64,000 nt of DNA from Escherichia phage vB_vPM_PD112: the sequence record NC_054928.1, one strand, 5' to 3'. The notes below the pieces were generated by a model, which searched no databases, was not told where the DNA came from, and worked only from the letters and a program-made list of their open reading frames with translations. A program made the translations under genes and the position numbers. Below are positions 1 to 61,042 of the stretch, one piece after another; position 1 is the stretch's first letter, and each line of letters opens with the position of its first letter.

Positions 1-44
1 TAAACGCTTTCTTCTTATCTTTATGGACAGAAGCTCTATTAAAA

Positions 45-263
45 TTATGTTTTGCGACTAAATTGTTCATAATGCTGAATTACCTCTCTTAAACATTTGC
101 ATGTGAATGAAAACTTTTTAGCTACACCACATTCAAATATATGTTCTCTTAAATCACGTGTATCAGTATATCCCATCTCAACAATAAAATGCCGTATTAG
201 ATTTTTATCTTTATCATTGAGAGAGTTAAAATAATCGGATTTTGAATTAATTTCCCTGGCCAA
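45..263 (-). CDS. hypothetical small protein (arn-motA interval)
   Basis: Track ORF 72 aa; first codon is TTG, true start may be an internal ATG; position upstream of motA. Confidence 0.35.
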   Translation of the reverse strand: MAREINSKSDYFNSLNDKDKNLIRHFIVEMGYTDTRDLREHIFECGVAKKFSFTCKCLREVIQHYEQFSRKT

Positions 264-543
264 ATTGAATCACCTTCAGTTGACGTTTTAACTCTTTTAT
301 CATTTCTTCGTTCATCGCAATATAAAGATCGCGTAAAGCAGGTTTTAGCATTCCATTTACTGGAGAACTAAATGGACATACATAATCTTTTCCTACGAGC
401 TTTTTAGTGAATTCCATATCGCAGAACTTAAATCCTGGTTCATTGGCATAAATTCCCCAATTAGTTGACATCATTTTATTAGCATATTCCAGTGCCTGGA
501 TTTGATTCATAATTCCATCAATTTGAAACTTTTTAATATTCAT
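247..543 (-). CDS. hypothetical protein, 98 aa
   Basis: Track ORF with ATG start; packed head-to-tail with neighbours. Confidence 0.5.
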   Translation of the reverse strand: MNIKKFQIDGIMNQIQALEYANKMMSTNWGIYANEPGFKFCDMEFTKKLVGKDYVCPFSSPVNGMLKPALRDLYIAMNEEMIKELKRQLKVIQFGQGN

Positions 544-1004
544 TAGTAAAGGTCCTCAGAGTAAAGTTCTTTTTCACTACCACCGCGTTCAATACGTACT
601 TGTCCAGCGTAAGTTGCAATAATCATTGCTTCTTCACGTGTCCAATAATTACTATATTGGTCAATAAACCCTTGATCATCATCACAAACTTGCTGAGTAA
701 CTAATTGAGGTTTAACTACATCTAAAACTTCGGCCATGTCTTTAGAATAATGACGAGCACCCGGAATAATAAGAGTTCGTCCATCTTTTAATTTAAAACG
801 ATTGGCTGCGCAAACAATCCGTCGTTGGTACTTTTGGTTTTCATCCCAGTATGCGGTCTGCCAACAGATTTCAGGAACTTCTTTCAGAATATCTTCTTCT
901 GTACATTTATAACCATGTGCTTTAAATTTTTGAACAAGACTTTCTGGAGTTTCACGAGATAAAGGAACATTCAGCATTTTTAAACGATTAATAAATGGAT
1001 TCAT
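543..1004 (-). CDS. hypothetical protein, 153 aa
   Basis: Track ORF with ATG start; stop overlaps next start. Confidence 0.55.
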
Positions 1005-1330
1005 TTAAACCATCCTTTAATACGTTGCCACAAAGTTTTCTGTTGCGCTTTGTTAACACCAATTGAGCGAATAACTGGTTGAGATTCCTGGAATTCTTTA
1101 TAATCAGCAAGGTAAATTTCGTAAGCTGAATCCGTAAAGGAACTTATAGCTGCCATAAAATTATTGCGAATACCTACTGGAGCATCTTTACTTTCACGAA
1201 TAATCATGTATTTACCAGTCTTAATCTTTACGATAGTTCCAAGATAAGCTCCATGGTACCAGATATCCCACCCCTCTTGAGTGGGTTCTGCACAACGACG
1301 AAGTTCATTGATAATTTCTAACTTGTTCAT
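1001..1330 (-). CDS. hypothetical protein, 109 aa
   Basis: Track ORF with ATG start; ATGA-type overlap with upstream ORF. Confidence 0.55.
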
Positions 1331-1340
1331 TATTTATTCC

Positions 1341-1976
1341 TCACAGTTCAGATGCTACGGTGATTACAGCTTCAATGTTTTCTGCCGAGCGTTTAATGTC
1401 AAGATACACATTACCGTTTTTAGCGATTTTACATGACATTCCGATGTCAGTAAATTTCTGAATATGATGTTCCATCATTTTGTATCCAAAAATTCGCATA
1501 TTTCCATTGTTGTTAATTTCAAAATTACGAATTCCGTGAGTGCGTTTTTCTAAAATAGCGAGATAGTTACTGCGATAAGTTTCAACCTTTTTAAGAACAA
1601 ATCCATTTTCATCTAAAAGTTTTAACATGAAGTCTTTATCTTCTTCCATATCAGAAGTAATCTCGCGAGCTTTACGAGTTGCTCGTTTTTTCAGCAGTTC
1701 CGGAGCATTTTCCTGTGCGTATAAAGTTGCTGCATTTGAAATAATATCCTGAGCTTCACCCGTAATGATTAATCCATCACCAGATTTCTCCACCAGGCCT
1801 TTTTTAATCAATACCCCAATATTACTATTAACTACTGCATTACCTAAATCTGGATGCACCTCACGAACTTCTGCAGCTGTAATGAAATCTTTCTTAGCAA
1901 TGGTAATTAAAATCGCAGCAGTTTTTTCATTCAGAATATCGTTAGAAGCTTTGATGATGTAAGTTACTTTAGACAT
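1341..1976 (-). CDS. motA: MotA, activator of middle transcription
   Basis: 211 aa, the T4 MotA length; N-terminus MSKVTYIIKASNDIL recalled as T4 MotA; own early promoter upstream. Confidence 0.9.
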   Translation of the reverse strand: MSKVTYIIKASNDILNEKTAAILITIAKKDFITAAEVREVHPDLGNAVVNSNIGVLIKKGLVEKSGDGLIITGEAQDIISNAATLYAQENAPELLKKRATRKAREITSDMEEDKDFMLKLLDENGFVLKKVETYRSNYLAILEKRTHGIRNFEINNNGNMRIFGYKMMEHHIQKFTDIGMSCKIAKNGNVYLDIKRSAENIEAVITVASEL

Positions 1977-2010
1977 TTTCTAATCTCCGTAATTCTGTAT
2001 CAGTAGTTGA

Positions 2011-2047
2011 TAGTTGTATAGTACCACAGTATGCTTTGGTTGTAAAC
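2011..2047 (-). promoter_or_regulatory. T4-early-type promoter upstream of motA
   Basis: Minus strand GTTTACA (plus 2041-2047), 17-nt spacer, TACTAT (plus 2018-2023), then SD GGAG and ATG at 1976. Confidence 0.7.
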
Positions 2048-2070
2048 CGTTTTGTGAAAAAATTTTAAAA

Positions 2071-2100
2071 TAAAAAAAGGGAGAGCTTCGGCTCTCCCTA
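2071..2100 (-). terminator. intrinsic terminator (hairpin plus U-run)
   Basis: Minus strand GGGAGAGCCGAAGCUCUCCC followed by UUUUUUUAUUUU, just before the motA promoter. Confidence 0.7.
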
Positions 2101-2103
2101 AAA

Positions 2104-2253
2104 TTACTGCATGACTGTGATAACTGTCATGATAACGCGTTGAATTCCGAACGCAAGAAGACCTCCTGCTACGGCTGGAACAACACCTAAACCCGCCAGT
2201 AAAATGCCGCCAGATACTAACGCCGCGCTTGTAATACCAATGAATGGACTCAT
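2104..2253 (-). CDS. small hydrophobic protein, 49 aa
   Basis: Hand-translated MSPFIGITSAALVSGGILLAGLGVVPAVAGGLLAFGIQRVIMTVITVMQ; ATG overlaps gene 52 stop (ATGA); not in ORF track. Confidence 0.5.
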   Translation of the reverse strand: MSPFIGITSAALVSGGILLAGLGVVPAVAGGLLAFGIQRVIMTVITVMQ

Positions 2254-3578
2254 TTGATTTCCTCTAAATCTTTGGTGTATTCGGTAACTACATCAGTAGT
2301 TTTCCAATATTCGTTTTCTTCTTTTTTAGCTTTAGCTTCTTCAGCAAGTTTCTTCGCTTCATCGGAAGTCATATGAAAAATATTCATTCCAACTAGTTTA
2401 TCAACATAAGAAGAATACATATCGATTTTCGAAAGTTCTTCGGTCAGTTCTTTACGAGTTTTACCTTGTACAACAATTTCACCTGAAATTACTTTCTTAA
2501 TGAAATGTGCCTTGGCAAAGGCTAAACGAAAAGCTGATTCAGTTTCTTTAATTTTGTTATCAATTCGTTTTTGAACATAAGTTTTACGAACTTCAACAAA
2601 GTCTTTAATTAAATCAACTACGTTATCGTAAACTTGCAGCTTTCCTTTCTCATTAATGACTGTAATATTCTGAGAACGACGCTCAATCAATCCAAAGTCT
2701 TTCATAATTTTTGCATGGCGTTCTTCTTCGTTATCGCTCAAAGAATATTCTTTACGGAATTTAACTTTAAAGCCAAAACCATGCTCACCGCAAGCATCAT
2801 CCCATGTAATGAAGCCTTTATCTTCAAGCGGGTCTAAGATTTTACTCACATAAGTTTCACGATCATACTTATACGGAATCTCAGTGATATTCATTTGAGT
2901 TCGTGAAGTAAACTTGTACGTTCCACGAATTTCATATTGACCGTCAATTTCAACGACTTCACCGCGAAATTCTGGGAATTCTACCTTCGGTTTAGTTACT
3001 TTCTTTCCTTGAAGAGCTTGTAGTACAGCTTTCTTGACAGAAGAAACACTATGAGGAAGAATGTAAGTTGCATAACCAGTTGCAATACCGGAAACACCGT
3101 TAAGAAGAACAGTAGGAATAATAGGCAAATAGAAAGCAGGCGGAATGTGTTCTTTATCTTGATGTACCGGAGCATATTCAGTATCTTTATATACGCTATA
3201 GAAATTTTTACTTACACGAGCAAAAATATAACGACTTGCTGCTGCTTTTTGAACGGTACGAGAACCAAAGTTTCCTTGACCATCTAACAAAGGAAAGTTA
3301 TTATTCCAAGTGTTAGCCATCAAAGCCCCCGCATCTTGTGCGGAGTTTTCACCATGATGATATCCAAGGTCAGCTACACCACCTGCAATAGAAGCGAGTT
3401 TGTGAAACTTATCTTTATTTCCTCGCGCCAAATCAAGAGCTCGAGCAATAACAAATCGTTGAACTGGCTTAAATCCATCAATCATATTTGGAATAGCACG
3501 ATTTTCAACCGTGTACATAGCATAAGCCAGTGCTTCATTATCAATGATACTTTTTAAATCGCGATTATTCAGTTGCAT
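2250..3578 (-). CDS. 52: DNA topoisomerase II medium subunit (GyrA-like)
   Basis: 442 aa, the T4 gp52 length; GyrA-like N-terminal region; ATG start. Confidence 0.95.
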   Translation of the reverse strand: MQLNNRDLKSIIDNEALAYAMYTVENRAIPNMIDGFKPVQRFVIARALDLARGNKDKFHKLASIAGGVADLGYHHGENSAQDAGALMANTWNNNFPLLDGQGNFGSRTVQKAAASRYIFARVSKNFYSVYKDTEYAPVHQDKEHIPPAFYLPIIPTVLLNGVSGIATGYATYILPHSVSSVKKAVLQALQGKKVTKPKVEFPEFRGEVVEIDGQYEIRGTYKFTSRTQMNITEIPYKYDRETYVSKILDPLEDKGFITWDDACGEHGFGFKVKFRKEYSLSDNEEERHAKIMKDFGLIERRSQNITVINEKGKLQVYDNVVDLIKDFVEVRKTYVQKRIDNKIKETESAFRLAFAKAHFIKKVISGEIVVQGKTRKELTEELSKIDMYSSYVDKLVGMNIFHMTSDEAKKLAEEAKAKKEENEYWKTTDVVTEYTKDLEEIK

Positions 3579-3582
3579 AAAT

Positions 3583-3723
3583 TTACCATACTAGTGAATG
3601 TAGTGCCATAATAACATCAGAAATGAAAAGCACGACTTGAATTAATCCGAACATTACTCCATAATATAGTGCTACCAGTAAAGCAGCAAGGGCTACTGAG
3701 TAGCCCAAGATTTTCTTAATCAT
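3583..3723 (-). CDS. small hydrophobic protein, 46 aa
   Basis: Hand-translated MIKKILGYSVALAALLVALYYGVMFGLIQVVLFISDVIMALHSLVW; ATG overlaps the ac stop; not in ORF track. Confidence 0.45.
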   Translation of the reverse strand: MIKKILGYSVALAALLVALYYGVMFGLIQVVLFISDVIMALHSLVW

Positions 3724-3871
3724 TAGATAACAACGCAAATGTTAAACATGCACACATACCCTGAGCTAAAGCTTGCGAAAACACGCTGCTGACATCAATA
3801 CAGATAGTTAAAACACATGCTACTATCCAACAAATAAATGAAATAACTCCTAATAATTTTGCAATATTCAT
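3716..3871 (-). CDS. ac: small membrane protein, probably Ac (acriflavine sensitivity)
   Basis: 51 aa hydrophobic ORF MNIAKLLGVISFICWIVACVL; size and position between 52 and stp fit T4 ac as I recall it. Confidence 0.5.
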   Translation of the reverse strand: MNIAKLLGVISFICWIVACVLTICIDVSSVFSQALAQGMCACLTFALLSND

Positions 3872-3878
3872 ATTTTCC

Positions 3879-3959
3879 TCACTGGCGTCCGAAGACGCCT
3901 TTAGTTTTAAGATTGTTACGATAGAACTGCATTACGTGTTCGTTATGGAAATTACTCAT
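3879..3959 (-). CDS. stp: Stp peptide (suppressor of three-prime phosphatase)
   Basis: 26-aa [29 protein letters not shown], recalled as T4 Stp; SD GAGGA; hairpin immediately downstream. Confidence 0.75.
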
Positions 3960-4414
3960 TAATATGCCTGCAAAACAAATTTAAAGTTATCAGCCAACAT
4001 ACGGTTCATTTCTTCAAGTGTTTGATACTCAGAATGATGATTACGAGTAAACGCCAAAGCTAACTGACCTTTTCCAAATCCTGTCGTCAAAGGTTTCATC
4101 TTAGAAGCAGGTAGATAAAATACCGTGTATGGAACATTGTTATTTGCAATAGTACGCGCAAGCTGAGACCGACGCTGACGAATATGACTTAGAACTGCAC
4201 TGAATCCTTGCTTAGAACGCTGATTACCTACATAAAATCGTGCAGATACACACGGACTATCAAATGGACCACCAAATTTGCTCACTAAAAAGTAAAATCC
4301 AGGGTTAGACAAAATGTCTTTATGCGGAGTTCCAAAAACCCATTCACCACCCTTGATTGTACCAATAACAGTAGCGCCTGCATTATTCAGATCAGTAACA
4401 GTCATGTATTTCAT
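3959..4414 (-). CDS. ndd: Ndd nucleoid disruption protein
   Basis: 151 aa, the T4 Ndd length; position downstream of denB and upstream of stp. Confidence 0.85.
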
Positions 4415-4473
4415 ATTAATTTCCTCTAATTATTTTCTACTCCAAGGCCGCATGAATACACACGGCCATTAAA

Positions 4474-4689
4474 TTAATCGTCGCAGTCGACGCTCAATTC
4501 CCAAAACTCTTCTACAGTATAAGTTTCAGTATCATTTTCAATACAGAAACGTTCATTACTGTTATTTGCTAAAGTAGCGTTAACTGTCGGTTTCTCGCTA
4601 GTGCTCTTAAGAGGTGAAATACGAATTAACTGATCACCACTATCTAAACAGAAAATTTCACCAACTTTTACATCTTTAAAAATTTTCAT
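4474..4689 (-). CDS. hypothetical protein, 71 aa
   Basis: Track ORF, ATG start. Confidence 0.5.
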   Translation of the reverse strand: MKIFKDVKVGEIFCLDSGDQLIRISPLKSTSEKPTVNATLANNSNERFCIENDTETYTVEEFWELSVDCDD

Positions 4690-4804
4690 AATTCACCTCA
4701 GGGAGTATAAAATCCGAATGCAGTTGTTGACCATCCCATCCAATATGGGAAATTTGCGCCAATGTAAAACATGAGAATATAAAACCAACCGCTCAGCAAA
4801 TTCA

Positions 4805-5002
4805 TCATTTTACGCCATTCCAAATTGTTTCAACCACGGATTTTAAACCATTTTGATGAATATCAATTCCGACTACTGTCATCAAATAGATTCCAACTAC
4901 AACTGAACCTAAGGCAAAAATCAGCATGAAAATGAATAAAGCCGGAAAAATATTATCGAAAAACCATTCAATAAATGTAAAAGCACTGCGTTTACGCTTC
5001 AT
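4805..5002 (-). CDS. small membrane protein, 65 aa
   Basis: Track ORF starts on TTG; first ATG with SD GAGGAAAAT gives MKRKRSAF..., one hydrophobic span. Confidence 0.5.
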   Translation of the reverse strand: MKRKRSAFTFIEWFFDNIFPALFIFMLIFALGSVVVGIYLMTVVGIDIHQNGLKSVVETIWNGVK

Positions 5003-5009
5003 ATTTTCC

Positions 5010-5123
5010 TCACATAAATCCAAAGTAAGCGTTTAATACATCAATCATTAAAACGATTGGGAATATACTCAAAACTATTAGTATTATAACTACATTCCAT
5101 ATAGCTTTAACAATCTTTTTCAT
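5010..5123 (-). CDS. small membrane peptide, 37 aa
   Basis: Hand-translated MKKIVKAIWNVVIILIVLSIFPIVLMIDVLNAYFGFM; SD GGAGGA; early promoter upstream; not in track. Confidence 0.35.
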   Translation of the reverse strand: MKKIVKAIWNVVIILIVLSIFPIVLMIDVLNAYFGFM

Positions 5124-5287
5124 TTTCTGTTCCTCCGTAGTTGATAGGGTAATAGTACCACGGAAGAACAGTCTTGTAAACAACTTTTTTTAAAAATATT
5201 CGTAATAAATGTGAATACCAACTACTACCGCTGAAACCTGTGCAACCCACCACGCACAAGCAATAAGTACAGAATTCAAAATTTTCA
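5117..5287 (-). CDS. small membrane protein, 56 aa, 3-prime end overlapping a promoter
   Basis: Hand-translated MKILNSVLIACAWWVAQVSAVVVGIHIYYEYFKK...; hydrophobic N-terminus; reading frame runs through promoter 5152-5180. Confidence 0.3.
5152..5180 (-). promoter_or_regulatory. T4-early-type promoter
   Basis: Minus strand TTTACA (plus 5175-5180), 17 nt, TACTAT (plus 5152-5157); followed by conserved leader and SD GGAGGA. Confidence 0.65.
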
Positions 5288-5370
5288 TAATAACCTCATC
5301 ACAAAAGTAAATGTTAAACAAATTACTGGAATACTAATTAACCAAACAAAACACCACCACCACAGTGAAC

Positions 5371-5634
5371 TCATAGTTCAATCTCAACGATTTCCAGGTG
5401 TTTTTGTTTTATTGCCTTTTTAACACAATCATGGACTAAATATGACCATGAATCATTATATTCTCCATTAACTAATCGTTGGAGATCTTCACGTGATGAT
5501 AAGTAAGGTTGATCTGATTCCCATTTTGATAAAAATACTGCAGTAAAAATATCTCCTTCACCTGTAGTTGAAGTCGTAAATGCAATAAATTCACCGGTAA
5601 TTTTATGTTTAGCGTAATAAAATTTAAATTTCAT
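5371..5634 (-). CDS. hypothetical protein, 87 aa
   Basis: Track ORF trimmed to the ATG that lies downstream of promoter 5662-5690 and has SD GGAGGA. Confidence 0.5.
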   Translation of the reverse strand: MKFKFYYAKHKITGEFIAFTTSTTGEGDIFTAVFLSKWESDQPYLSSREDLQRLVNGEYNDSWSYLVHDCVKKAIKQKHLEIVEIEL

Positions 5635-5661
5635 TTTTACTCCTCCGTAGCTGATAGTTGT

Positions 5662-5690
5662 ATAGTACCACAGTCCTTGTGGTATGTAAA
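5662..5690 (-). promoter_or_regulatory. T4-early-type promoter
   Basis: Minus strand TTTACA (plus 5685-5690), 17 nt, TACTAT (plus 5662-5667); spacer has dyad CCACA..TGTGG. Confidence 0.7.
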
Positions 5691-5708
5691 CTGTTTTGTG
5701 AAATTTTT

Positions 5709-6266
5709 TTAAATGGAAAGATACCATCCGTTGTAGTTGCTTTTTCTTACAACCTTACGAAGGTCTTCTCTGTCACCGATGAACTTCGGAGTGTACTGGA
5801 TGACACCTGGATGAATTTCTTTAGTGTTGAATATAATTATACAGTCAGCGACTTGGTGATTTAGAATGGGCCCTAGATTTATTCCAGAACCATATGGATA
5901 CTCTCCGCTGCATCCGGTTGTTACCGAAATCCAACGTGAGTCAGTTTGATGTGTCTTAACTTCTACACGAAGCCCACAGTATTTTGGATGCGCCAATACA
6001 TCCCATGCATATGTGTACGGATCATCGACATCTTCTTGACCTTTGTTAACATACCCGCTCAGCCAATCTGCTACAAAAAATTCTGCGTACACAGCGATAC
6101 GGCATCTTTCGATAACTTCTGCCTTATCTTGATTTGGGTTTTGTTTTAAAGAGTATCTTGCTGTATCAGCAATTTTGGCCTTCATTTCACTAGTCAAGTC
6201 ACTGTTCGATAGGGTAAATGTCGGAATCTGAAACAGTCTCTGTAACCCAGGATTCGTTTTCTGCAT
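5709..6266 (-). CDS. denB: DenB, endonuclease IV
   Basis: 185 aa, the T4 DenB length; position between ndd cluster and rIIB. Confidence 0.7.
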   Translation of the reverse strand: MQKTNPGLQRLFQIPTFTLSNSDLTSEMKAKIADTARYSLKQNPNQDKAEVIERCRIAVYAEFFVADWLSGYVNKGQEDVDDPYTYAWDVLAHPKYCGLRVEVKTHQTDSRWISVTTGCSGEYPYGSGINLGPILNHQVADCIIIFNTKEIHPGVIQYTPKFIGDREDLRKVVRKSNYNGWYLSI

Positions 6267-6528
6267 TTAGACTTTCCTTTTTACCACTGAGATAAGCGTT
6301 ATATACTTTAAGAGTGCCGTAATAAATTCGGTCATTTTCATCTAAAGACTCGCGGTCAAGTTCATCGAGCTCCTTTTTATCCATGACTATAACATCATTA
6401 CAGTAAAGAAACCCAAGTTTTTCGTGACCAAACTCAAATTTATTACAGTACACAATATTAGCGTGATGATTTCCGTGCAGTTTAATCTCTTTTATGTCGG
6501 AATCACCGATATTCATACAATAAATCAT
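6199..6528 (-). CDS. hypothetical protein, 109 aa
   Basis: Track ORF, ATG start, SD AAGGAAAA; 3-prime end overlaps denB start by 68 nt. Confidence 0.45.
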   Translation of the reverse strand: MIYCMNIGDSDIKEIKLHGNHHANIVYCNKFEFGHEKLGFLYCNDVIVMDKKELDELDRESLDENDRIYYGTLKVYNAYLSGKKESLNAENESWVTETVSDSDIYPIEQ

Positions 6529-6540
6529 AATTTTTCCTTA

Positions 6541-6560
6541 AAACAAAAGGGCCGAAGCCC
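6541..6560 (-). other. intercistronic hairpin with UUCG loop
   Basis: Minus strand GGGCUUCGGCCC followed by UUUUGUUUU, between ORF 6567-6761 and ORF 6199-6528. Confidence 0.6.
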
Positions 6561-6566
6561 TTTATT

Positions 6567-6761
6567 TTACTTGAATTGTGCAATTCTTTTCTCTAGACAT
6601 TCAGCATAAGATTTCATTGAGATAAACTGCGAAAGTAGCAGTTCTTGCTCAACTGCGCTAACTGTTAGAAACTTTGCGCTTTCTAAAAATTTGCTCAGTG
6701 CATTAATTTTGAGCATTAATTGATCGTATTCTTCTTTTACTCGTGCTTGATAACCTAACAT
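6567..6761 (-). CDS. hypothetical protein, 64 aa
   Basis: Track ORF, ATG start, directly downstream of rIIB. Confidence 0.5.
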   Translation of the reverse strand: MLGYQARVKEEYDQLMLKINALSKFLESAKFLTVSAVEQELLLSQFISMKSYAECLEKRIAQFK

Positions 6762-6793
6762 AATTTTCCTTAATGTAATAAGGGCCGAAGCCT

Positions 6794-7732
6794 TTATTTG
6801 AATTGTTCAGTAACGTCTTCAACTACTTCGTATTGGCAGGTACGCATTTTAGCATCGTTGTAATCAATCGGAATTGATACTACATCACGCGGATGTACTT
6901 TAACTTTTACAACTCGGCTGGTTGAACTGCCAAAGTGACGAATATAAGATTTAGAACACACATGCAGACCATGAGAACAAGTTTGTGTATCATCGTCATT
7001 CACACGAGTACGTGGCATTTTAACTACTTTACCCGGACTGTTATCAAAGGTGTTTGAGTGACAGTCAAAGTAATTGCTACGAACTACTTTCCAAGCATAG
7101 AAGTAACCATCTTCTGTAATTTCAATATCGTTTGCTACCAAGAAATCAAAGAGTCGAGATACCGCTTTTTGGCTTGGGTTTTCCAACAGATTTTCCAGGA
7201 ACGGAAAATAAAATTCAAAGTTTTCGCCTTTTTCCATCGAATCGAGAATACGATCAACTAAACCAGACCGCAATTCAATGTTTTGATAGAACAAGCTTCC
7301 ACCTTCAATTCGAACATCGCCGGAAATATATTTTTCAACAGCGCGACGAACATTAATTTTTTGTGCCGCTTCTTCCAACTTATCCGCTACAAGCAGATTA
7401 AGAATTTCCTGGAAGTTTGAATGAGTATTAGGAGTTGCGTTATAAGTTACACCGTCAACAGTAATTGAAATGAATTTTTTAGATGCATTCCAAATAATGT
7501 CAGATTTAGCAACTGGAGCAATAGCTACATCGCTCTTAACTTCAACTGTAATGTCACCGCTAATGGTAACTTTAGAGCGTTCAGCTTCTTCAGCATTTTT
7601 CAAAACACGACGGATTGTGTCAACCGATACACCTTGCCAATCAGCCAATTCCTGTTGGGTATAATTACCGCTTGAATACAGTTTGACAATTTCAGCTTGT
7701 TCGTTTTTGGTCAGGCATTTAATATTGTACAT
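6794..7732 (-). CDS. rIIB: rIIB protein
   Basis: 312 aa, the T4 rIIB length; immediately downstream of rIIA. Confidence 0.95.
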   Translation of the reverse strand: MYNIKCLTKNEQAEIVKLYSSGNYTQQELADWQGVSVDTIRRVLKNAEEAERSKVTISGDITVEVKSDVAIAPVAKSDIIWNASKKFISITVDGVTYNATPNTHSNFQEILNLLVADKLEEAAQKINVRRAVEKYISGDVRIEGGSLFYQNIELRSGLVDRILDSMEKGENFEFYFPFLENLLENPSQKAVSRLFDFLVANDIEITEDGYFYAWKVVRSNYFDCHSNTFDNSPGKVVKMPRTRVNDDDTQTCSHGLHVCSKSYIRHFGSSTSRVVKVKVHPRDVVSIPIDYNDAKMRTCQYEVVEDVTEQFK

Positions 7733-7743
7733 AATTTTCCTTA

Positions 7744-9921
7744 TTAGGCCGCAAGGGCCTTCATAGTTTTAGCGATTTGGGAAACTTCATCATCACTTAA
7801 AGAGTTGCGATATCCGATGAAGTCGGAAACAATACGGAATTTCTTGGTAAACTCAGCAACCATTTTATCACTGTTTTTTGAAGCATTATTTGATAATACA
7901 TCAAAAAGATTAGTTACTGTCCAGATGTCATGACCGATGGTATCTCTTCCACCGTTGAAATATACACCCTGTAATGAACTAACCATATTAGCAAGTCGTG
8001 TATATTCTTCAGAAACTTCATCTACACTGAAGTACTTCATCATAAAATCTAGTTCAGGATACTTAATAATTTTATCAATATATCGTTTAGCTGAACTTGA
8101 ATAACCTACATACTTATCATAATCTACAGCATCAAAAGCATCTACATATAAATCACGCAGAGTTTCAAAAATACATTGGCACTGACCAAGTTCTTTTACC
8201 TTTTTCTGCAAAAGCGGACGAATAACATAAAATTCATTAATGCCAATAAGATTCGCCATACGAGTCAAAATATTCGTAGATGGATGACAAAGCGATGTAG
8301 TACCATCCATAGAGAAAATATCAGAACGATGCATGTATGCTACATAACCAGTAATTTCATCTGCTTCTGATGTGAGCGTAAACAGTTCCTCTTTTTCCCA
8401 ACGCCCGTCTTTAATTTCAAACTTAAATGCAGTAGCAGTTTTAGGACGAGGAGCTGTACTTTTTACTGCCTTTGGAATATAACTTTTAACTAAAGCTTCA
8501 ATTTCTGACAAATAATGAATGTTAACTTCATCACTTTCAAACATTGCCATAATATCAGGGAGTAAATCAATCTGCGATTCTACTTCCGGATTAATAAACA
8601 GAAGACGCTCATTGTGATGAATATTCAAAGTGTTATTAAATTCACTATCATCTAATGCACGTGCTAATCCACGGACAATATTAACACGATTTTTAATATT
8701 ATCAATAACGATATTAATTTTTGTTGTGTTAATACCAAACAGACGATAACTTGATGCAACGGCTGAAGTTTCATGGCTTTGCTTAATGCGTTTCAGTCGA
8801 GGGTCAAGATTTACTTCATACACAACTCCTGCATTGCATAACTTACTGTCAGGTTCAAACATGCTCTGCATCTTTTTATATGACAGATTTTTAGTCGTGA
8901 ATTTGACTGAATTACTAATCATATAATCTCGAGCAGAATACCCCATCTTCATCAATTCACGGTATGTGTGACGAGGAGATGTAGATTCTTTAAATCGTTT
9001 TACATCTTCATTAAATGCCTGCTCACTGAGCTCTTTAACTCGTTCAATAATATTTTTACGAGTACGATCATCTAGTGAAAGAGCTTCACGTGATGGAGCA
9101 ATATCAAGTGAACCCATTGGAAACTTAATGTAATTCACTTCATTACGAATGCTTAACCAGTTACGATCTCTAATAACACCTTCGATAGGATAAACAATGC
9201 CGCCATAGATAGCATATAATCCACCACGATCTGGCCAGTATCTTTCTGGATTTACACCGTAATAGTCATCAAAATCCGGAAAATAATCAATTTCGCGATC
9301 AAGACCATTAATGATAGCCAAATCTTTAAATGGTCGCATGATATAAGAAACTTCATAAGCAAAGTTTCTAAAGTCTTTTTCTTCAACTGGAACTACGATT
9401 TCAATACCAGTTTTATCGTTTGGACCCATTTCTTTTACGAATGTAGGTTTAATCTGTGGACCATCACCATCCATGTAAGCTACATAACCACGAATTTCGC
9501 CTTTATGATATGAAGTGATACTAAACGTATCAGTATAACTAAACGGAGATTTAGAACCTAAACCAAATCCACCAATGAAATCATTAGATTCAGCCTTAGA
9601 TGAACTGAAGTATGAATTATACAACCCAGGAGAATTATCATCACCCTGAATATCAAAATCGCTCATACCCGGACCAAAATCTCGACAAACAAATCGCGGA
9701 TCTAATCGTCCTGGAACTTGAATGATAAATTTTTCAGGATTTCCATTAAGAGCATGGGCATCAATCATGTTGGTAATCAATTCACGGACTACTGCGCGAA
9801 TCTTGTTTGTATACAAATCAGATGATAGAATTTTAAATACTTTAGGAGATGCTGTGATGCTAAATGCTTTTGATTTAGAACCATTACCAAGAATTGTTTC
9901 TTTTTCAGTGGTGATAATCAT
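7744..9921 (-). CDS. rIIA: rIIA protein (GHKL-type ATPase domain)
   Basis: 725 aa, the T4 rIIA length; N-terminal histidine-kinase-like ATPase motifs. Confidence 0.95.
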
Positions 9922-10190: not shown

Positions 10191-10722
10191 TACTGGCTCA
10201 TCCATTCTTTACGAAGGTCAGCATTATCTCCCATGAGCATTTCAAAAAGCTCTTTCCAATTCTCAGGAAGTTTAACAACATCATATACTGGGTTTTGAAT
10301 CATCTCACGATATTCAGATTTTTCCAAAGAGCCAAGTCCCTTAATATAACGGATGCTATGTTTAGGTAGAGCATCTTTGGCACTCTCATATTCAGCGACT
10401 GTATAAAACCATTCTTGTTTTTTGCCGACCTGAGCGATGATTACAGGAGTTTTGACAAAGCGAATTCTTCCTTGTTCAAACAGTTCTGGCCAATTACTAA
10501 AAAATCCGAGCAGAGAAGGATAAATAGAACCTAATCCAATAATCTCTTAATTATGAGGTATTTCTATAGATAGCCCGAAGGCTATCCATCGTGATCTGCG
10601 TCTGTCATAATAGCGACATTCGCATAGTTCATTGAAGAGGATTTAATAGAACGACGAACATTGTTCTGCAATTTATATTTTTTCATATCAACGCTAGAAG
10701 AATCAATTTTTACAAATTTCAT
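10190..10722 (-). CDS. 60: DNA topoisomerase II subunit gp60, made by 50-nt translational bypass
   Basis: Codons 1-46 at 10722-10585 (MKFVKIDSS...TDADHDG), then UAG; decoding resumes at UUA 10534 (LGSIYPSLLGFFSNWPELFEQGRIRF...MSQ) to stop 10190-10192; 160 aa total as in T4. Confidence 0.95.
10535..10584 (-). other. gene 60 coding gap (ribosome bypass element)
   Basis: Take-off GGA 10585-10587, stop UAG 10582-10584, take-off hairpin UAGCCUUCGGGCUA, landing GGA 10535-10537. Confidence 0.9.
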
Positions 10723-13101: not shown

Positions 13102-13120
13102 AAAGGCCCGAAGGCCTTTT
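13102..13120 (-). other. hairpin with UUCG loop over the stop codon of ORF 13119-13379
   Basis: Minus strand AAAGGCCUUCGGGCCUUU; sits directly upstream of the gene 39 middle promoter. Confidence 0.6.
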
Positions 13121-23115: not shown

Positions 23116-23141
23116 TGAAAAAAGGACTCCCGAAGGAGTCC
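23116..23141 (-). terminator. intrinsic terminator downstream of soc
   Basis: Minus strand GGACUCCUUCGGGAGUCC followed by UUUUUUCAUUUU. Confidence 0.7.
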
Positions 23142-23149
23142 TTAAATTA

Positions 23150-29616: not shown

Positions 29617-29961
29617 TTAAAAGAATTTAAATTTTTTCTTTGACCTTTTATTAAATGCATCTTGTAGTTGCATTGTAATACATTTTTCTACATGAGGAGC
29701 TAACTCAGCTTTTCTTTCTTGGTCAAGAACAGCAAAGTCCATTACGACTTTTCCATCAACCCAATCTAATTTTGTCACATACACAATGTGTGTAGAACCA
29801 TCTTCTAGTTTAATGACAATCTCCTGGATAACATTTTCCATGGCAGATTTAATTATCTTAAGAGATTCATTAAAAAGACGTTCTTTTCTTTCTTCTTCCC
29901 CCTCCGAAGAGGGGGATTCATCGATAATTTCTAGATCTAAATCTAAATCATCTTTATTCAT
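29617..29961 (-). CDS. 40: acidic protein, about 114 aa, probably gp40
   Basis: Position between uvsX and 41 as on the T4 map; track start is GTG, first ATG used. Confidence 0.45.
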   Translation of the reverse strand: MNKDDLDLDLEIIDESPSSEGEEERKERLFNESLKIIKSAMENVIQEIVIKLEDGSTHIVYVTKLDWVDGKVVMDFAVLDQERKAELAPHVEKCITMQLQDAFNKRSKKKFKFF

Positions 29962-37105: not shown

Positions 37106-37137
37106 ATTATACTCCAATTAAGGGGCCGAAGCCCCTT
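37106..37137 (-). promoter_or_regulatory. -10 element and UUCG hairpin between regA and 43
   Basis: Minus strand GGGGCUUCGGCCCC (plus 37120-37137) then TATAAT (plus 37106-37111). Confidence 0.5.
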
Positions 37138-39034: not shown

Positions 39035-39069
39035 AATTTCCTCATTCAAGTTTTAGTGTAAATTATAAA

Positions 39070-39081
39070 GGGCCGAAGCCC
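39070..39081 (-). other. intercistronic UUCG hairpin between 45 and 44
   Basis: Minus strand GGGCUUCGGCCC; 4 nt past the gene 45 stop. Confidence 0.6.
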
Positions 39082-39085
39082 TTTA

Positions 39086-39772
39086 TTAAAAATCGTGGGT
39101 AGAATCAGCTTCAAGAGCTACCACATAATTCGCGTGTTCACCTTCAAATTTAGCAGCACCTTGTTTACCTTTTGCCCAGAGCAGAAGTTTATAATTTCCT
39201 GGTTGCATTTTCATATTTGCCATATTGATAATGAAATTAAATGTATTTTCACCATCATAATCGCCAAGAGTCAAAGAATATTTAACACGAGTCAAAGCAG
39301 AATCTTCTACTTTATTAAAACCGTTAATTACGATTTTACCTTCTTTTACCGTGATAGCAATTGTATCAATTTGCAGACCACGAGATACACGCAACAGTTG
39401 TTGAAGGTCTTCAGCTTTAATTTCAGTAACAACAGATGCTACCGGGAATGGAATTGGTTTATTAGGAGCAACTACTGTACTCGGATCGGCTGCTGGCCAA
39501 AAAATTGTTGAGCGAGCATCAGCAATTTTAATATTACCATCTTCTGACTGGGAAATTTCTGCATCATCATTAACTAGAGACAGAATACCGAGAAAACCGT
39601 TCAAATCGTAAATTGCTACATCAAAATCAATAACGTCAGAAATATTTGCTTCAGCATAAGTTGTACCATTAACTGCACGAGTCATAATAAATTGACCAGA
39701 TTTAAGCATAATACCGGAGTTAATAGTAGCGAAATTTTTCAAAATATTCAGTGTATCTTTAGACAGTTTCAT
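39086..39772 (-). CDS. 45: sliding clamp
   Basis: 228 aa, the T4 gp45 length; N-terminus MKLSKDTLNILKNFATINSGIML. Confidence 0.95.
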   Translation of the reverse strand: MKLSKDTLNILKNFATINSGIMLKSGQFIMTRAVNGTTYAEANISDVIDFDVAIYDLNGFLGILSLVNDDAEISQSEDGNIKIADARSTIFWPAADPSTVVAPNKPIPFPVASVVTEIKAEDLQQLLRVSRGLQIDTIAITVKEGKIVINGFNKVEDSALTRVKYSLTLGDYDGENTFNFIINMANMKMQPGNYKLLLWAKGKQGAAKFEGEHANYVVALEADSTHDF

Positions 39773-43775: not shown

Positions 43776-43779
43776 TAAA

Positions 43780-43791
43780 GGGCCGAAGCCC
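43780..43791 (-). other. UUCG hairpin abutting the alpha-gt stop codon
   Basis: Minus strand GGGCUUCGGCCC directly after the stop at 43793-43795. Confidence 0.6.
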
Positions 43792-43792
43792 T

Positions 43793-44995
43793 TTATTTTG
43801 TAATAATGTCAAACTGCTCTTTAAAGCAGAAGCTTGAATCTTGGTGCTGATACAAAAATTCATAAGCTTTTTCGCGTTCACGGTCATAAAGAGCTCGGTC
43901 AGATGACAGTTCTTTAATACGTTCAAATGTTGATTCCATGTCATTTTCATCAAACCAAACGATACCGCTATCGTGCGAAATTAATGGAGTATTATCAACA
44001 CGGAATTTTAAATTTTCGCCAGTAGATTTCCAAAATACTGGAATTGTTCCACATGCACCAAGCTCGAGATGAGTATATTCTAAAGAACGCTGTAGATATT
44101 TTTTATCTAATTTACTCAGCTGATAACCAAATCCGGATTTACTCATGCGTTCAAGCATTTCGCTATTTACATAACGGTCGAGAATTTGCGTCGGCAAATT
44201 AGGAGCAATTTTAATTTGGTCTACTTGATGAAGACGATAATACTCGTATGGAATTCCTTTTTCTTTAATAGGAATGAAAGCTGGAGAACGTTCCAGACCT
44301 TCCATAATAGTACTTAGTCCTGCAGGTTTAAGATGTTTTTCGTGAAAATCAAACATCTGATAAAAGCCTTTCCATGTAGTAGTACGACCAATCCAACGGT
44401 TGATATTCATGTTAATTTCAGAAACATCTTTCCAGTAGGTTGATCGAACCTTCGCAATATCCATAGGAGGCTGAAAGTTATATACGGTCGGTGCTTCTTC
44501 AATATCATCAAACAGAGAAACAGTTTCCGGATACCATTCTTTCATCAAAACTTTATTAAAGTCACCATTATCAGAATGGCTAAAAATAACATCAGCTCGA
44601 CGAACAGTTTCTTCTAATCCCAAATTTCGGCGTAAAGAAAGAGAAGAATGGTCATGCTGATAAACTACAACACGAACCGAAGGTTTAATGTTATCAATAA
44701 TTTTTTTATAGTTATTAATAGTGTCTTCTTCTACTGAAGTAGCAGGAACTGAATTGATAATTAGAATATCACAATCATTTACCAACTTAAGTGTTTTATC
44801 GTATTCTTTTGCCAATAAAACCGGAATTGAAAATGACTTATAATCATGCGCGCAATTACGAGTAAATGATTTATCTTTAGCATAAACCAAAGTTACTTCA
44901 TGACCATTTTTAATAAACCAATCACGCTGCTCAAGAGAAAATTTAGTTACACCGCAACCTTCAAGACCTCGAGCCATAAAAATACATGCTTTCAT
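43793..44995 (-). CDS. agt: alpha-glucosyltransferase
   Basis: 400 aa, the T4 alpha-gt length; N-terminus ...CIFMARGLEGCGVTKF. Confidence 0.9.
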   Translation of the reverse strand: MKACIFMARGLEGCGVTKFSLEQRDWFIKNGHEVTLVYAKDKSFTRNCAHDYKSFSIPVLLAKEYDKTLKLVNDCDILIINSVPATSVEEDTINNYKKIIDNIKPSVRVVVYQHDHSSLSLRRNLGLEETVRRADVIFSHSDNGDFNKVLMKEWYPETVSLFDDIEEAPTVYNFQPPMDIAKVRSTYWKDVSEINMNINRWIGRTTTWKGFYQMFDFHEKHLKPAGLSTIMEGLERSPAFIPIKEKGIPYEYYRLHQVDQIKIAPNLPTQILDRYVNSEMLERMSKSGFGYQLSKLDKKYLQRSLEYTHLELGACGTIPVFWKSTGENLKFRVDNTPLISHDSGIVWFDENDMESTFERIKELSSDRALYDREREKAYEFLYQHQDSSFCFKEQFDIITK

Positions 44996-45043: not shown

Positions 45044-45061
45044 ATATAGGAGCCGAAGCTC

Positions 45062-45235
45062 CTATCCACATAATACACCATACAGAGGCTCATTAGAGCT
45101 TCTAAATTTTATACGTTTATATGTTATAGTTCCTTCTGCTTTAGCTTTATCATGAGACTCTTTAAAGCGCCTCATCATTTCTACTTTAGAGGAACGAATT
45201 TTATTATAATCTATTTCAGAAGTCTGGGTGTTCAT
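45062..45235 (-). CDS. small basic protein, 57 aa
   Basis: Hand-translated MNTQTSEIDYNKIRSSKVEMMRRFKESHDKAKAEG...; stop lies in a UUCG hairpin; not in track. Confidence 0.3.
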   Translation of the reverse strand: MNTQTSEIDYNKIRSSKVEMMRRFKESHDKAKAEGTITYKRIKFRSSNEPLYGVLCG

Positions 45236-47410: not shown

Positions 47411-47430
47411 TCCAAAAAGGGCCGAAGCCC
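47411..47430 (-). terminator. UUCG hairpin with U-run (terminator-like)
   Basis: Minus strand GGGCUUCGGCCC followed by UUUUUGG, directly after the stop of ORF 47431-47631. Confidence 0.55.
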
Positions 47431-47631
47431 TTAGCTAAACTGTTTGGCGCCCTTCCAGCCTTCGTACATCATTGCGGCTGATATTAATATTGCCCCTGAA
47501 CAGCTTGAATATTTGTGATTCCAAAACCAGTTCAGAAAAACTTCGTCATCAATACCTTGGGCTATCATATTTTCAAAGAACTGACGACGAGCTTCGGCAA
47601 TTCGTTGCGATAATTTAGATTCAGGATTCAT
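47431..47631 (-). CDS. hypothetical protein, 66 aa
   Basis: Track ORF, ATG start. Confidence 0.5.
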   Translation of the reverse strand: MNPESKLSQRIAEARRQFFENMIAQGIDDEVFLNWFWNHKYSSCSGAILISAAMMYEGWKGAKQFS

Positions 47632-47844
47632 TTAAATTTTCCAATTGCCGTTTTCATCAATGAATTTAATCCAGTCATTTACTGACCACTTGGTCGTATC
47701 ACCTTTTGGAGCAACATTTAAAGTGTATAATCCTTGTTTAAAAAGCATACGTTTGATATTCATATTTTCCTCAGCTGTAACGATAGCACTCGTTTGATTT
47801 ACGTTTAGCAACTCGTTGAGAAGTATTATAATCAAAATCGTCAT
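47632..47844 (-). CDS. small membrane protein, start uncertain
   Basis: Track first codon is TTG; ATG at 47844 or internal ATG at 47763; hydrophobic N-terminus. Confidence 0.4.
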   Translation of the reverse strand: MTILIIILLNELLNVNQTSAIVTAEENMNIKRMLFKQGLYTLNVAPKGDTTKWSVNDWIKFIDENGNWKI

Positions 47845-57123: not shown

Positions 57124-58014
57124 TTAAGATTTAAGTAAATCAACAATTTTAATTAACTTTTCACGCTCAGATTTAGCTTTACTACTCAATCCAGATAGTC
57201 TGAAAATTTCATCGTCATATTGTTGAATAGAAATATTCAGCTCTTCAATTTGCTTATTAAAATAATCAATTTGTTCAGAATGTTTTTCGTTACTACGAAC
57301 TGGTACAGGTTTTGTAGGCAATTTAGTTGAACTGGATTCATCCGGGCGATAAATTAAAATACAACTTGAACCAATCGGACATTTAGCACCAGACACATAT
57401 TCTAATGTTCCGGCTTCTTTTAAAACTTCAAAAGCTAAACAGAGATGATGACCCATATTGGCATAATCTGTAGAGTGAGCTCTGATGTAATAATCATCTC
57501 CACGAGTACTAAATTTAAAGCATTTAAGGTCTTCTGTATTATTGGTCTTAAAAATCATTTGTTTATCTAGACCTTTAGCTAATCGAGCGCCTAATGCTAA
57601 TAATCGTCGTTGATTTTCCCACAAATCCGCAATCATTTGGTCAAATGATAATTTCGGCATTAGTCGACCATAAAGGTCATATCCTTTATTATAATTACGA
57701 AGGATTTCACTCGCATTAATACGAGACAACGCTCCAATTTTATTAAGGGCTTTCATAATGCGATTAGATAAACTCATTCCAGACCCGTTTGGTCGCTGTA
57801 AATGTTTTTCTAATCCAAATCCAATATCAACTTTAAACTTATCTAAAATTTCGGCATGAACATCTTTATCAATAACATTCAAATCCAAAGTTGGGTTAAA
57901 TCTATGAAAAAATTTATCTGGCTCTCCACGACGAAATACAGTCCATTCATTCATCATTTTTTTATTAACTAAAGATTTAATTACTGTATTGACATTATTA
58001 ATTACTACTGACAT
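57124..58014 (-). CDS. hypothetical protein, about 296 aa
   Basis: Track start is GTG; first ATG gives MSVVINNV... Confidence 0.5.
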   Translation of the reverse strand: MSVVINNVNTVIKSLVNKKMMNEWTVFRRGEPDKFFHRFNPTLDLNVIDKDVHAEILDKFKVDIGFGLEKHLQRPNGSGMSLSNRIMKALNKIGALSRINASEILRNYNKGYDLYGRLMPKLSFDQMIADLWENQRRLLALGARLAKGLDKQMIFKTNNTEDLKCFKFSTRGDDYYIRAHSTDYANMGHHLCLAFEVLKEAGTLEYVSGAKCPIGSSCILIYRPDESSSTKLPTKPVPVRSNEKHSEQIDYFNKQIEELNISIQQYDDEIFRLSGLSSKAKSEREKLIKIVDLLKS

Positions 58015-58021
58015 ATTTTCC

Positions 58022-58429
58022 TCACTCAATTTCAATTTTACTAAATACACAGAATATGATTGAACAGACTACATAAGCACCACACACAGATTGAACTAAT
58101 ACCATCCCAAAGAACCAAACAATATTATCAAACAGTGTCTGTTTTACGTCGAAAGGACGTAAACTTACAGTAATATTATCACCTTTTTCTATTGAAGAAT
58201 ACATCTCTGGGGAAATATATTCACTAAATCTATAACCGTCTTTGAGTTCATATACAGCAATAAACGATAAACTAGACCCCTTTCCTTGTGTTCCTGTAAT
58301 GGTATTAACTACAGTAACATCATAATCTTTATAATGCATATAATCATTAATTGCGTAATAACCGTATGCAACTACTACACATAAACAACATATCAATAAA
58401 TTCAATCTTTTAATTATCAACTGTTTCAT
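58022..58429 (-). CDS. membrane protein, 135 aa
   Basis: N- and C-terminal hydrophobic spans; ATG start; middle promoter upstream. Confidence 0.5.
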   Translation of the reverse strand: MKQLIIKRLNLLICCLCVVVAYGYYAINDYMHYKDYDVTVVNTITGTQGKGSSLSFIAVYELKDGYRFSEYISPEMYSSIEKGDNITVSLRPFDVKQTLFDNIVWFFGMVLVQSVCGAYVVCSIIFCVFSKIEIE

Positions 58430-60999: not shown

Positions 61000-61040
61000 T
61001 GAAAAATTTTTGAAATAAAAAAGGGAGCCCGAAGGCTCCC
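61000..61040 (-). terminator. intrinsic terminator
   Basis: Minus strand GGGAGCCUUCGGGCUCCC followed by UUUUUUAUUUC, just past the stop of ORF 61043-62056. Confidence 0.7.
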
Positions 61041-61042
61041 TA

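Follow-up and report, generated by a model that had tools for sequence, protein, structure and literature searches.

What is encoded in the short interval between gene 52 and ndd of Escherichia phage vB_vPM_PD112, and does the stable hairpin found there do anything beyond coding for part of a peptide? The stretch of DNA analysed here (sequence record NC_054928.1, 64,000 nucleotides; hereafter the window) was first annotated from its letters alone, and that first-pass annotation placed in the interval three back-to-back micro-genes, missing from the track of open reading frames (ORFs), together with a hairpin at the boundary between two of them. We asked which genes these are, whether they are genes at all, and what the hairpin may contribute to the messages that contain it.

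Layout of the interval between gene 52 and ndd

The minus strand does carry, at 3583-3959, three consecutive small ORFs of 46, 51 and 26 amino acids between gene 52 and ndd. They are absent from the ORF track because each is shorter than 60 aa, the default listing threshold. To that extent they were rightly called missing; the novelty that the word implied does not hold, since the T4 record annotates all three. The features of the locus, in window coordinates, are the following.

gene 52, 2250-3578, minus strand: topoisomerase II medium subunit, 442 aa; downstream neighbour, with 3 amino-acid differences from T4 gp52
52.1, 3583-3723, minus strand: 46 aa from ATG; conserved, predicted small membrane protein of the DUF7396 family; 45/46 aa as in T4 gp52.1
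ac, 3716-3871, minus strand: 51 aa, hydrophobic; acridine sensitivity (or 'resistance') gene; 48/51 aa as in T4 Ac
stp, 3879-3959, minus strand: 26 aa; predicted inhibitor of type Ic restriction (EcoprrI) and thereby activator of the PrrC anticodon nuclease; 26/26 aa as in T4 Stp
ndd, 3959-4414, minus strand: nucleoid disruption protein, 151 aa; upstream neighbour, with 7 amino-acid differences from T4 Ndd
C(UUCG)G hairpin, 3884-3899, minus strand: GGCGUC-UUCG-GACGCC, 6-bp stem, within stp codons 21-26
stop-SD-start linker UGAGGAAAAUAUG, 3869-3881, minus strand: stp UGA (3881-3879) overlapping the ac Shine-Dalgarno (SD) sequence GAGG (3880-3877), then a 5-nt spacer and the ac AUG (3871-3869)

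Two of the four junctions in ndd-stp-ac-52.1-52 overlap. The ndd stop and the stp start share 1 nt (TAATG), and the ac stop and the 52.1 ATG share 8 nt (ATGATTAA). The start/stop overlaps originally described are confined to these two, for stp and ac are separated by a 7-nt gap, with the stp UGA overlapping the ac SD within UGAGGAAAAUAUG, and a 4-nt gap lies between the 52.1 stop and the gene 52 ATG. The tight spacing at ndd/stp, ac/52.1 and 52.1/52 suggests that neighbouring genes may be translated in relay.

The program-made ORF list contains a TTG-extended, 51-aa form of 52.1 that reaches 3738. We take 46 aa to be the right length, because the homologues all begin at the ATG (MIKK...) and the upstream DNA belongs to the gene in the ac slot. 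The two larger products are hydrophobic, as had been noted from the sequence, with GRAVY values of 1.53 for Ac (19-aa window maximum 2.74) and 1.74 for gp52.1; the value for Stp is -1.03.

The three ORFs correspond to T4 genes 52.1, ac and stp

A megablast search with window positions 3400-4500 matched 566 phage records, nearly all of them Tequatrovirus and its relatives. The nearest record is that of vB_EcoM_IME537, at 99.2% identity, so the window comes from a relative of T4 and not from T4 itself. The gene order 52 / 52.1 / ac / stp / ndd is that of T4 (NC_000866, 165209-166040), and the lengths given in the T4 record (52.1, 141 nt; ac, 156 nt; stp, 81 nt; ndd, 456 nt) recur here together with the overlaps.

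The identity of the genes was settled by comparison with the annotated T4 proteins. Direct comparison gives 26/26 identical residues for Stp, 48/51 for Ac, 45/46 for gp52.1, 144/151 for Ndd and 439/442 for gp52. The stp genes agree at 80 of 81 nucleotides, the sole change being synonymous, and the conserved N-terminal 18 residues of Stp are all as in T4, as indeed are all 26 positions. In its position, its 1-nt overlap with ndd, its embedded hairpin and its downstream linker, the gene resembles T4 stp (NP_049878) without any difference of substance. T4 ac (NP_049877, 'acridine resistance protein') is matched in its 51-aa length, position, 8-nt overlap with 52.1 and hydrophobicity; the Ac proteins differ by three substitutions, A27V, Y42C and V46A relative to T4. 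T4 52.1 (NP_049876) likewise encodes 46 aa directly upstream of gene 52, and the present product carries L10V relative to it.

Family models point the same way. Stp scores 75.3 bits against Pfam PF08133, 'anticodon nuclease activator' (cut-off 25), over residues 1-26 of 26, and matches phrog_6763 with an E value of 4e-21. For gp52.1 the score against PF24129 (DUF7396) is 79.8 bits (cut-off 27) over residues 1-46 of 46, and phrog_3595 was also matched; both Pfam scores are thus about three times their cut-offs. Ac matches phrog_2501 with an E value of 8e-23. The first-pass annotation had read the 26-aa ORF as Stp and had named ac as its neighbour, proposing alignment with the T4 genes as the check; both names stand, and the T4 peptides are clearly matched.

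We therefore read the stretch as the Tequatrovirus early-gene block ndd-stp-ac-52.1-52, with three described T4 micro-genes on the minus strand. We put the probability of this explanation at about 90%, a figure that applies to the explanation as a whole, including the proposed coupling between the genes and a role for the hairpin. The named parts, 52.1, ac and stp, all have T4 annotations and published descriptions already.

Functions expected of Stp, Ac and gp52.1

Stp is necessary and sufficient for activation of the PrrC tRNA-Lys anticodon nuclease, and its target is the type Ic restriction enzyme EcoprrI, whose restriction of DNA it alleviates (PMC3014915). Loss-of-function mutations cluster at residues 4-14, and deletion of the last 8 stp codons lowers activity just moderately (PMC3014915). 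By its identity to the tested T4 peptide, the Stp encoded here is predicted to inhibit type Ic restriction (EcoprrI/EcoR124I) and to activate PrrC. It would bind the EcoprrI complex of the host and so block restriction, and in prr+ hosts the associated PrrC would be unmasked and would cut tRNA-Lys. In established T4 work, the phage mends the cut tRNA with Pnk and RNA ligase 1.

The T4 ac gene comprises 156 bp and 51 codons and is non-essential, and its loss confers acriflavine resistance (bioRxiv 10.1101/2025.06.30.662393). Ac has been proposed to insert in the membrane and to impair AcrAB-TolC efflux (bioRxiv 10.1101/2025.06.30.662393; PMC13250531). In the present phage it would likewise be a small membrane peptide whose presence renders infection acridine-sensitive, putatively through interference with AcrAB-TolC. 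The product of 52.1 is probably a conserved small membrane protein (DUF7396), with a similar ORF found immediately ahead of gene 52 in the majority of the related loci that were examined.

A C(UUCG)G hairpin inside the stp coding sequence

The hairpin occupies 16 nt at plus-strand positions 3884-3899, and the minus strand reads GGCGUCUUCGGACGCC. It codes for residues G21-V-F-G-R25 of Stp and the first base of the Q26 codon. The same sequence occurs in T4, and folding of the 16-mer yields -11.5 kcal/mol. The hairpin had been placed correctly by coordinates and described as sitting over the stp stop and the ac ribosome-binding site. In fact its end at 3884 lies 2 nt before the stp UGA and 3 nt before the ac SD core GAGG, so that it stands beside these elements and not over them.

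It was in T4 mRNA that the UUCG tetraloop on a C-G closing pair was first found, as an 'extraordinarily stable' hairpin (PMC4371310). With the T4 hairpins of the C(UUCG)G class (Tuerk et al. 1988, via PMC4371310) the present one has in common that C-G pair, the UUCG loop and a G+C-rich stem, and it lies on the coding strand of the stp gene block. By its UUCG loop, C-G closing pair and 6-bp Watson-Crick stem, the stp hairpin belongs to this class. It departs from it in location, lying inside a coding sequence, at stp codons 21-26, where intercistronic placement is typical of the class though not strictly defining, and it has no U-tract.

The motif is abundant in this phage. CTTCGG occurs 33 times in the window against 12.3 expected, a count that none of 100 shuffled sequences reached. 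Thirteen copies, the stp hairpin among them, lie in stems of at least 6 bp; the corresponding share among generic C....G sites is about 2%. Of these 13 stems 12 are on the minus strand, mostly outside long ORFs or at ORF ends. Rfam covariance models applied to the whole window gave no match at the gathering score. The exact 16-mer was found in 110 IMG/VR stretches, mostly contigs absent from the searches anchored on ndd or stp; this spread marks it as a generic stable hairpin and makes the scan uninformative about stp.

Apparent selection on the hairpin

Does the stem merely follow from the peptide that it encodes? Given GVFGR and the codon usage of the phage (window), a Watson-Crick stem is expected with a probability of 3.4e-4, and the observed codons with one of 8e-5. 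The stem is improbable because its codons are all minority choices (GGC, 12%; GTC, 8%; CGC, 11%; TTC, 24%). Among the T4-type stp variants examined, about one third of the 30 nt just upstream differ, and the stem is kept in all but SA20RB. The variants that keep it show only changes from C3 to U and from C16 to U, each leaving a G.U pair, and a C-to-U change in the loop, with folding energies of -9.3 to -11.5 kcal/mol. The codons concerned fall in the tail of stp, on which the activity of the peptide is reported to depend little (PMC3014915). From the codon-usage and comparative evidence, the hairpin appears to be selected at the RNA level within a coding sequence.

It may be argued instead that the hairpin serves no purpose in itself and simply results from the GVFGR peptide and from the common descent of close phages. 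Many of the stp sequences examined are indeed close kin. Moreover, the stp of Kagunavirus-type siphophages (e.g. Raoultella phage RP180) encodes GVFGK through GGA/GGG GTG TTT GGA AAA without any hairpin, its stop being overlapped by a different gene. Conservation of the hairpin is thus partly a matter of the peptide, since siphophage Stp keeps GVFG where the hairpin is lacking. A G-to-A change (V22I) in SA20RB leaves a weaker stem, of -3.5 kcal/mol; the hairpin is thus not strictly required. A by-product would nevertheless have needed three rare codons (GGC, GTC and CGC) together with TTC, at the probabilities given above, and would not readily account for diverged variants in which only G.U-compatible changes have been accepted, or for the strong enrichment of CUUCGG stems in the genome. 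We accordingly regard this explanation as unlikely.

Possible roles of the hairpin

Our best inference for the role of a selected hairpin is one in transcript stability or punctuation. It would act as stable RNA punctuation, either as a barrier to 3'-exonucleases or as a weak point of pausing or termination, and would thereby set the 3' boundary and the stability of the ndd-stp message.

Two other roles were weighed. The hairpin could be a terminator or attenuator, which on the sense strand would part ndd-stp from ac-52.1-52, or which on the plus strand (GGCGUCCGAAGACGCC then UUUAGUUUUA) would halt antisense transcription. The annotators of phage G4500 called the sense-strand hairpin a putative terminator, and T-runs come after several of the other CUUCGG hairpins of the window. 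The sense strand of the present hairpin, however, lacks a U-tract after the stem, its tail being AGUGAGGAAAAUAUG, and an intrinsic (Rho-independent) terminator on this strand was rejected on that ground; T4 transcripts of all four genes, moreover, fall in the same (early) class. The plus-strand form passes a terminator-like pattern scan, but its loop is CGAA, which is not a stabilised tetraloop, its T-run is interrupted, and the late-promoter consensus TATAAATA was not found on either strand of window positions 1-8000. An antisense terminator on the plus strand is accordingly a weak candidate, and termination or attenuation in either form is improbable as an account of the hairpin.

The hairpin could also govern translation of ac by masking or exposing its SD or start, in such a way that translation of ac would depend on the melting of the stem by ribosomes at the end of stp; this comes near to the picture given in the first-pass annotation. 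The proximity of the elements gives this idea its appeal: the hairpin ends a mere 3 nt ahead of the SD, with which the stp stop overlaps, and the minimum-free-energy fold of a 116-nt region stretches the helix weakly toward the SD. The ac SD and AUG nonetheless lie outside the stem. In partition-function calculations, the unpaired probability of the SD was 0.41 with the native hairpin; three synonymous versions in which the hairpin was broken gave 0.36-0.50. With no consistent change in SD accessibility, masking of the ac ribosome-binding site was rejected as the main role of the hairpin. The fold of the whole region has a z-score of just -1.98, and the UGAGGAAAAUAUG linker recurs at three other junctions of the window, two further points against regulation of this kind, which is quite unlikely to be the role of the hairpin.

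As to promoters of other classes, a strict MotA-box regular expression found no match near the locus. A relaxed MotA-like sequence, TGCTTTA-N12-TATTAT, lies inside 52.1, but at this place in T4 the -10-like hexamer is TATTAC, and the sequence is mentioned only in passing.

The linker and the module boundary

The UGAGGAAAAUAUG linker has four exact copies in the window and, with up to one mismatch allowed, eight copies against 0.33 expected; all, in both counts, are on the minus strand. It does not vary between loci, even those with another gene downstream. Against the comparison locus L011, stp, the hairpin and the linker align at 85-100% identity; the ac slot drops to 45-65%, and from the start of 52.1 the value is again 75-95%. 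Secondarily, the hairpin and the UGAGGAAAAUAUG linker would together form a patch of homology at a module boundary, the point at which different genes of the ac slot have been exchanged in related phages.

Such an arrangement recalls the PeSL elements of T4-like phages, which consist of a stem-loop, a sigma-70-like early promoter, an SD and a start codon (PMC4122927; PMC2839356). The likeness lies in the stem-loop, in the conserved SD and start codon that come after it, and in the position at a boundary of gene swapping. Unlike a PeSL, the stp hairpin is itself part of a gene, with only 3 nt between the stem and the SD, and within these 3 nt no promoter-like site was found before the ac SD. 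For lack of a promoter in that position, membership of the PeSL elements was rejected.

Taken together, a tentative picture may be drawn, possible rather than probable, in which the hairpin is a selected, dual-coding RNA element that lies in the tail of stp, dispensable for the peptide, because it is required as RNA. It would determine the stability or the 3' boundary of the ndd-stp message and, with the invariant UGAGGAAAAUAUG linker, might serve as a promoter-less, PeSL-like patch for swapping genes for small membrane proteins into the ac slot.

Conservation of the small genes and their omission from annotation

Comparison with relatives shows purifying selection on all three ORFs. Among the distinct homologous coding sequences retrieved, pN/pS is 0.147 in the 15 sequences of 52.1, 0.136 in the 9 of ac and 0.127 in the 12 of stp, for which codons 1-20 were used; these 12 are a small set of T4-type stp. 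Gene context was followed in 36 IMG/VR loci anchored on Ndd and not on the small ORFs. A 52.1-type ORF stands directly before gene 52 in most of the loci listed, and this still holds where Ndd identity has dropped to about 56%. Hydrophobic ORFs of at least three unrelated types occupy the ac slot in these loci, and Stp is confined, among the matches listed, to a T4/RB-type subset of 14 loci.

Time-course omics of T4 classed the transcripts of 52.1, ac and stp as 'early', and the shotgun proteome from the same work lists Stp, Ac and gp52.1 all as 'NA', that is, not detected (PMC9697503 Table S2). That a shotgun approach should miss peptides of 26-51 aa, mostly hydrophobic or trypsin-poor, is unsurprising. 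Since that proteome lacks gp52.1, it is conservation that carries the case for 52.1 as a gene. That one or more of these ORFs arose by chance in AT-rich DNA, as their very small size and their absence from the proteome might suggest, is highly improbable in view of pN/pS values of 0.13-0.15 in all three, matches to curated family models over their full length, and the retention of 52.1 in its position in T4-like phages to about 56% Ndd identity; for stp and ac, on which T4 genetics and biochemistry exist, such a reading is effectively refuted already.

Public records often omit these genes. The RefSeq entry of the nearest relative, IME537, annotates ac alone, as a 'sugar ABC transporter permease', and lacks stp and 52.1; the G4500 record also lacks stp and 52.1. 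Stp is encoded in 612 phage records, and of 40 Stp-encoding records sampled, most give ndd alone under the match, about 7 bearing a label of stp or of a type-IC-restriction inhibitor. The minimum gene length of Prodigal is 90 nt, and at 81 nt stp falls below it, which would explain its omission.

The main value of the present analysis is as a quality check, in that real, functional micro-genes were hidden by a 60-aa ORF track and are often dropped from public annotation. Stp is of biological importance both as an anti-restriction peptide and as the trigger of an abortive-infection tRNA nuclease; pipelines that discard ORFs of fewer than about 30 codons therefore miss a known counter-defence gene. 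Outside the T4-like phages, rtp6 of phage Rtp is already annotated as 'similar to phage T4 Stp'. Two genes upstream of rtp6, Rtp carries a gene for a putative polynucleotide kinase.

Stp homologues and the mosaic ndd-52 interval

Homologues of Stp were also found in siphophages unrelated to T4, located in the compared phage stretches (L-numbers) as follows:
L054, 12484-12561: stp copy of Raoultella phage RP180, a Kagunavirus
L165, 1483-1575: stp copy of phage Rtp, gene rtp6
L048, L049/L051 and L052: further stp copies; another occurs in Ro145clw

The Kagunavirus Stp homologues are identical at 24 of 25 residues and are encoded directly after the holin/endolysin genes. Rtp encodes a putative polynucleotide kinase two genes upstream of rtp6. 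In L048, the stp reading frame has no stop codon where the other copies end and extends into the downstream gene, staying open for 40 codons or more. The UUCG hairpin that lies within the last codons of stp in vB_vPM_PD112 is absent from the siphophage copies.

Among the T4-like contigs, two carry two stp-derived segments each (L010, 2441-3118; L013, 2609-3286). The first segment is an intact variant (…QWHRHNLKLTGVFGRP) and the second is a T4-type copy with a decayed start. Both lead into the hairpin and the same stop-SD-start linker, and the small hydrophobic ORF that comes next differs. This arrangement looks like cassette insertion through recombination at the hairpin and linker. Across L008-L039, one to four small hydrophobic ORFs make up the ndd-52 interval in mosaic fashion, and a 52.1-like ORF is the one found most consistently. 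In the ac slot between stp and 52.1, three or more unrelated families occur (MNIAKLLG..., MQTVFTFIW... and MIILVFIELI...). The more distant T4-likes of this set lack stp and possess instead, directly after ndd, a conserved hydrophobic ORF of 57-61 aa with the motif M..FF.MGYLF...FERLC..CGV...

Recurrent junctions and hairpins

The 13-mer linker TGAGGAAAATATG, in which a stop codon overlaps the SD and is followed by a 5-nt spacer and ATG, seems to be a standard gene junction in the vB_vPM_PD112 genome. Allowing up to one mismatch, the window contains eight copies (0.33 expected), all on the minus strand; four are exact:
3869-3881, minus: stp/ac junction
5000-5012, minus
47761-47773, minus
58012-58024, minus

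CTTCGG is enriched 2.7-fold in the 64-kb window (33 occurrences vs 12.3 expected). Thirteen copies sit in stems of 6-10 bp, mostly at the ends of long ORFs or outside them, and all but one are on the minus strand:
2078-2099, plus
3884-3899, minus: stp hairpin
6546-6563, minus
10566-10589, minus
13102-13119, minus
23122-23143, minus: T-run after stem
29897-29916, minus
37120-37137, minus
39065-39086, minus
43776-43795, minus
45046-45065, minus
47417-47432, minus: T-run after stem
61022-61041, minus: T-run after stem

T-runs follow some stems and are absent after others. This set is the classic CUUCGG hairpin population of T4. No Rfam family reached the gathering score in the entire window (1-64000).

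Other signals and public annotation

Further elements lie in the locus or next to it:
3690-3706, minus: second perfect hairpin, GGGCUAC-UCA-GUAGCCC, 52.1 codons 6-11
3685-3679, minus: MotA-box-like TGCTTTA inside 52.1, just downstream of that hairpin
3666-3661, minus: TATTAT inside 52.1, after a 12-nt spacer
4443-4470, minus: imperfect GGCCG...CGGCC stem-loop between ndd.1 and ndd

The perfect hairpin is annotated as a terminator in SA20RB and G4500. TGCTTTA and TATTAT might together serve gene 52 as a middle promoter; since the -10-like hexamer is TATTAC in T4, they count as no more than a pattern match. The imperfect stem-loop closely precedes the ndd ribosome-binding site, and SA20RB carries a rho-independent terminator annotation at the matching position.

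In IME537, SA20RB and G4500, stp and/or 52.1 are uncalled. Two product names appear to be misannotations: 'sugar ABC transporter permease' for Ac, which several Tequatrovirus records in RefSeq carry, for example NC_054921.1 (IME537), and 'naphthalene 1,2-dioxygenase' for Ndd in SA20RB (OL960581.1).
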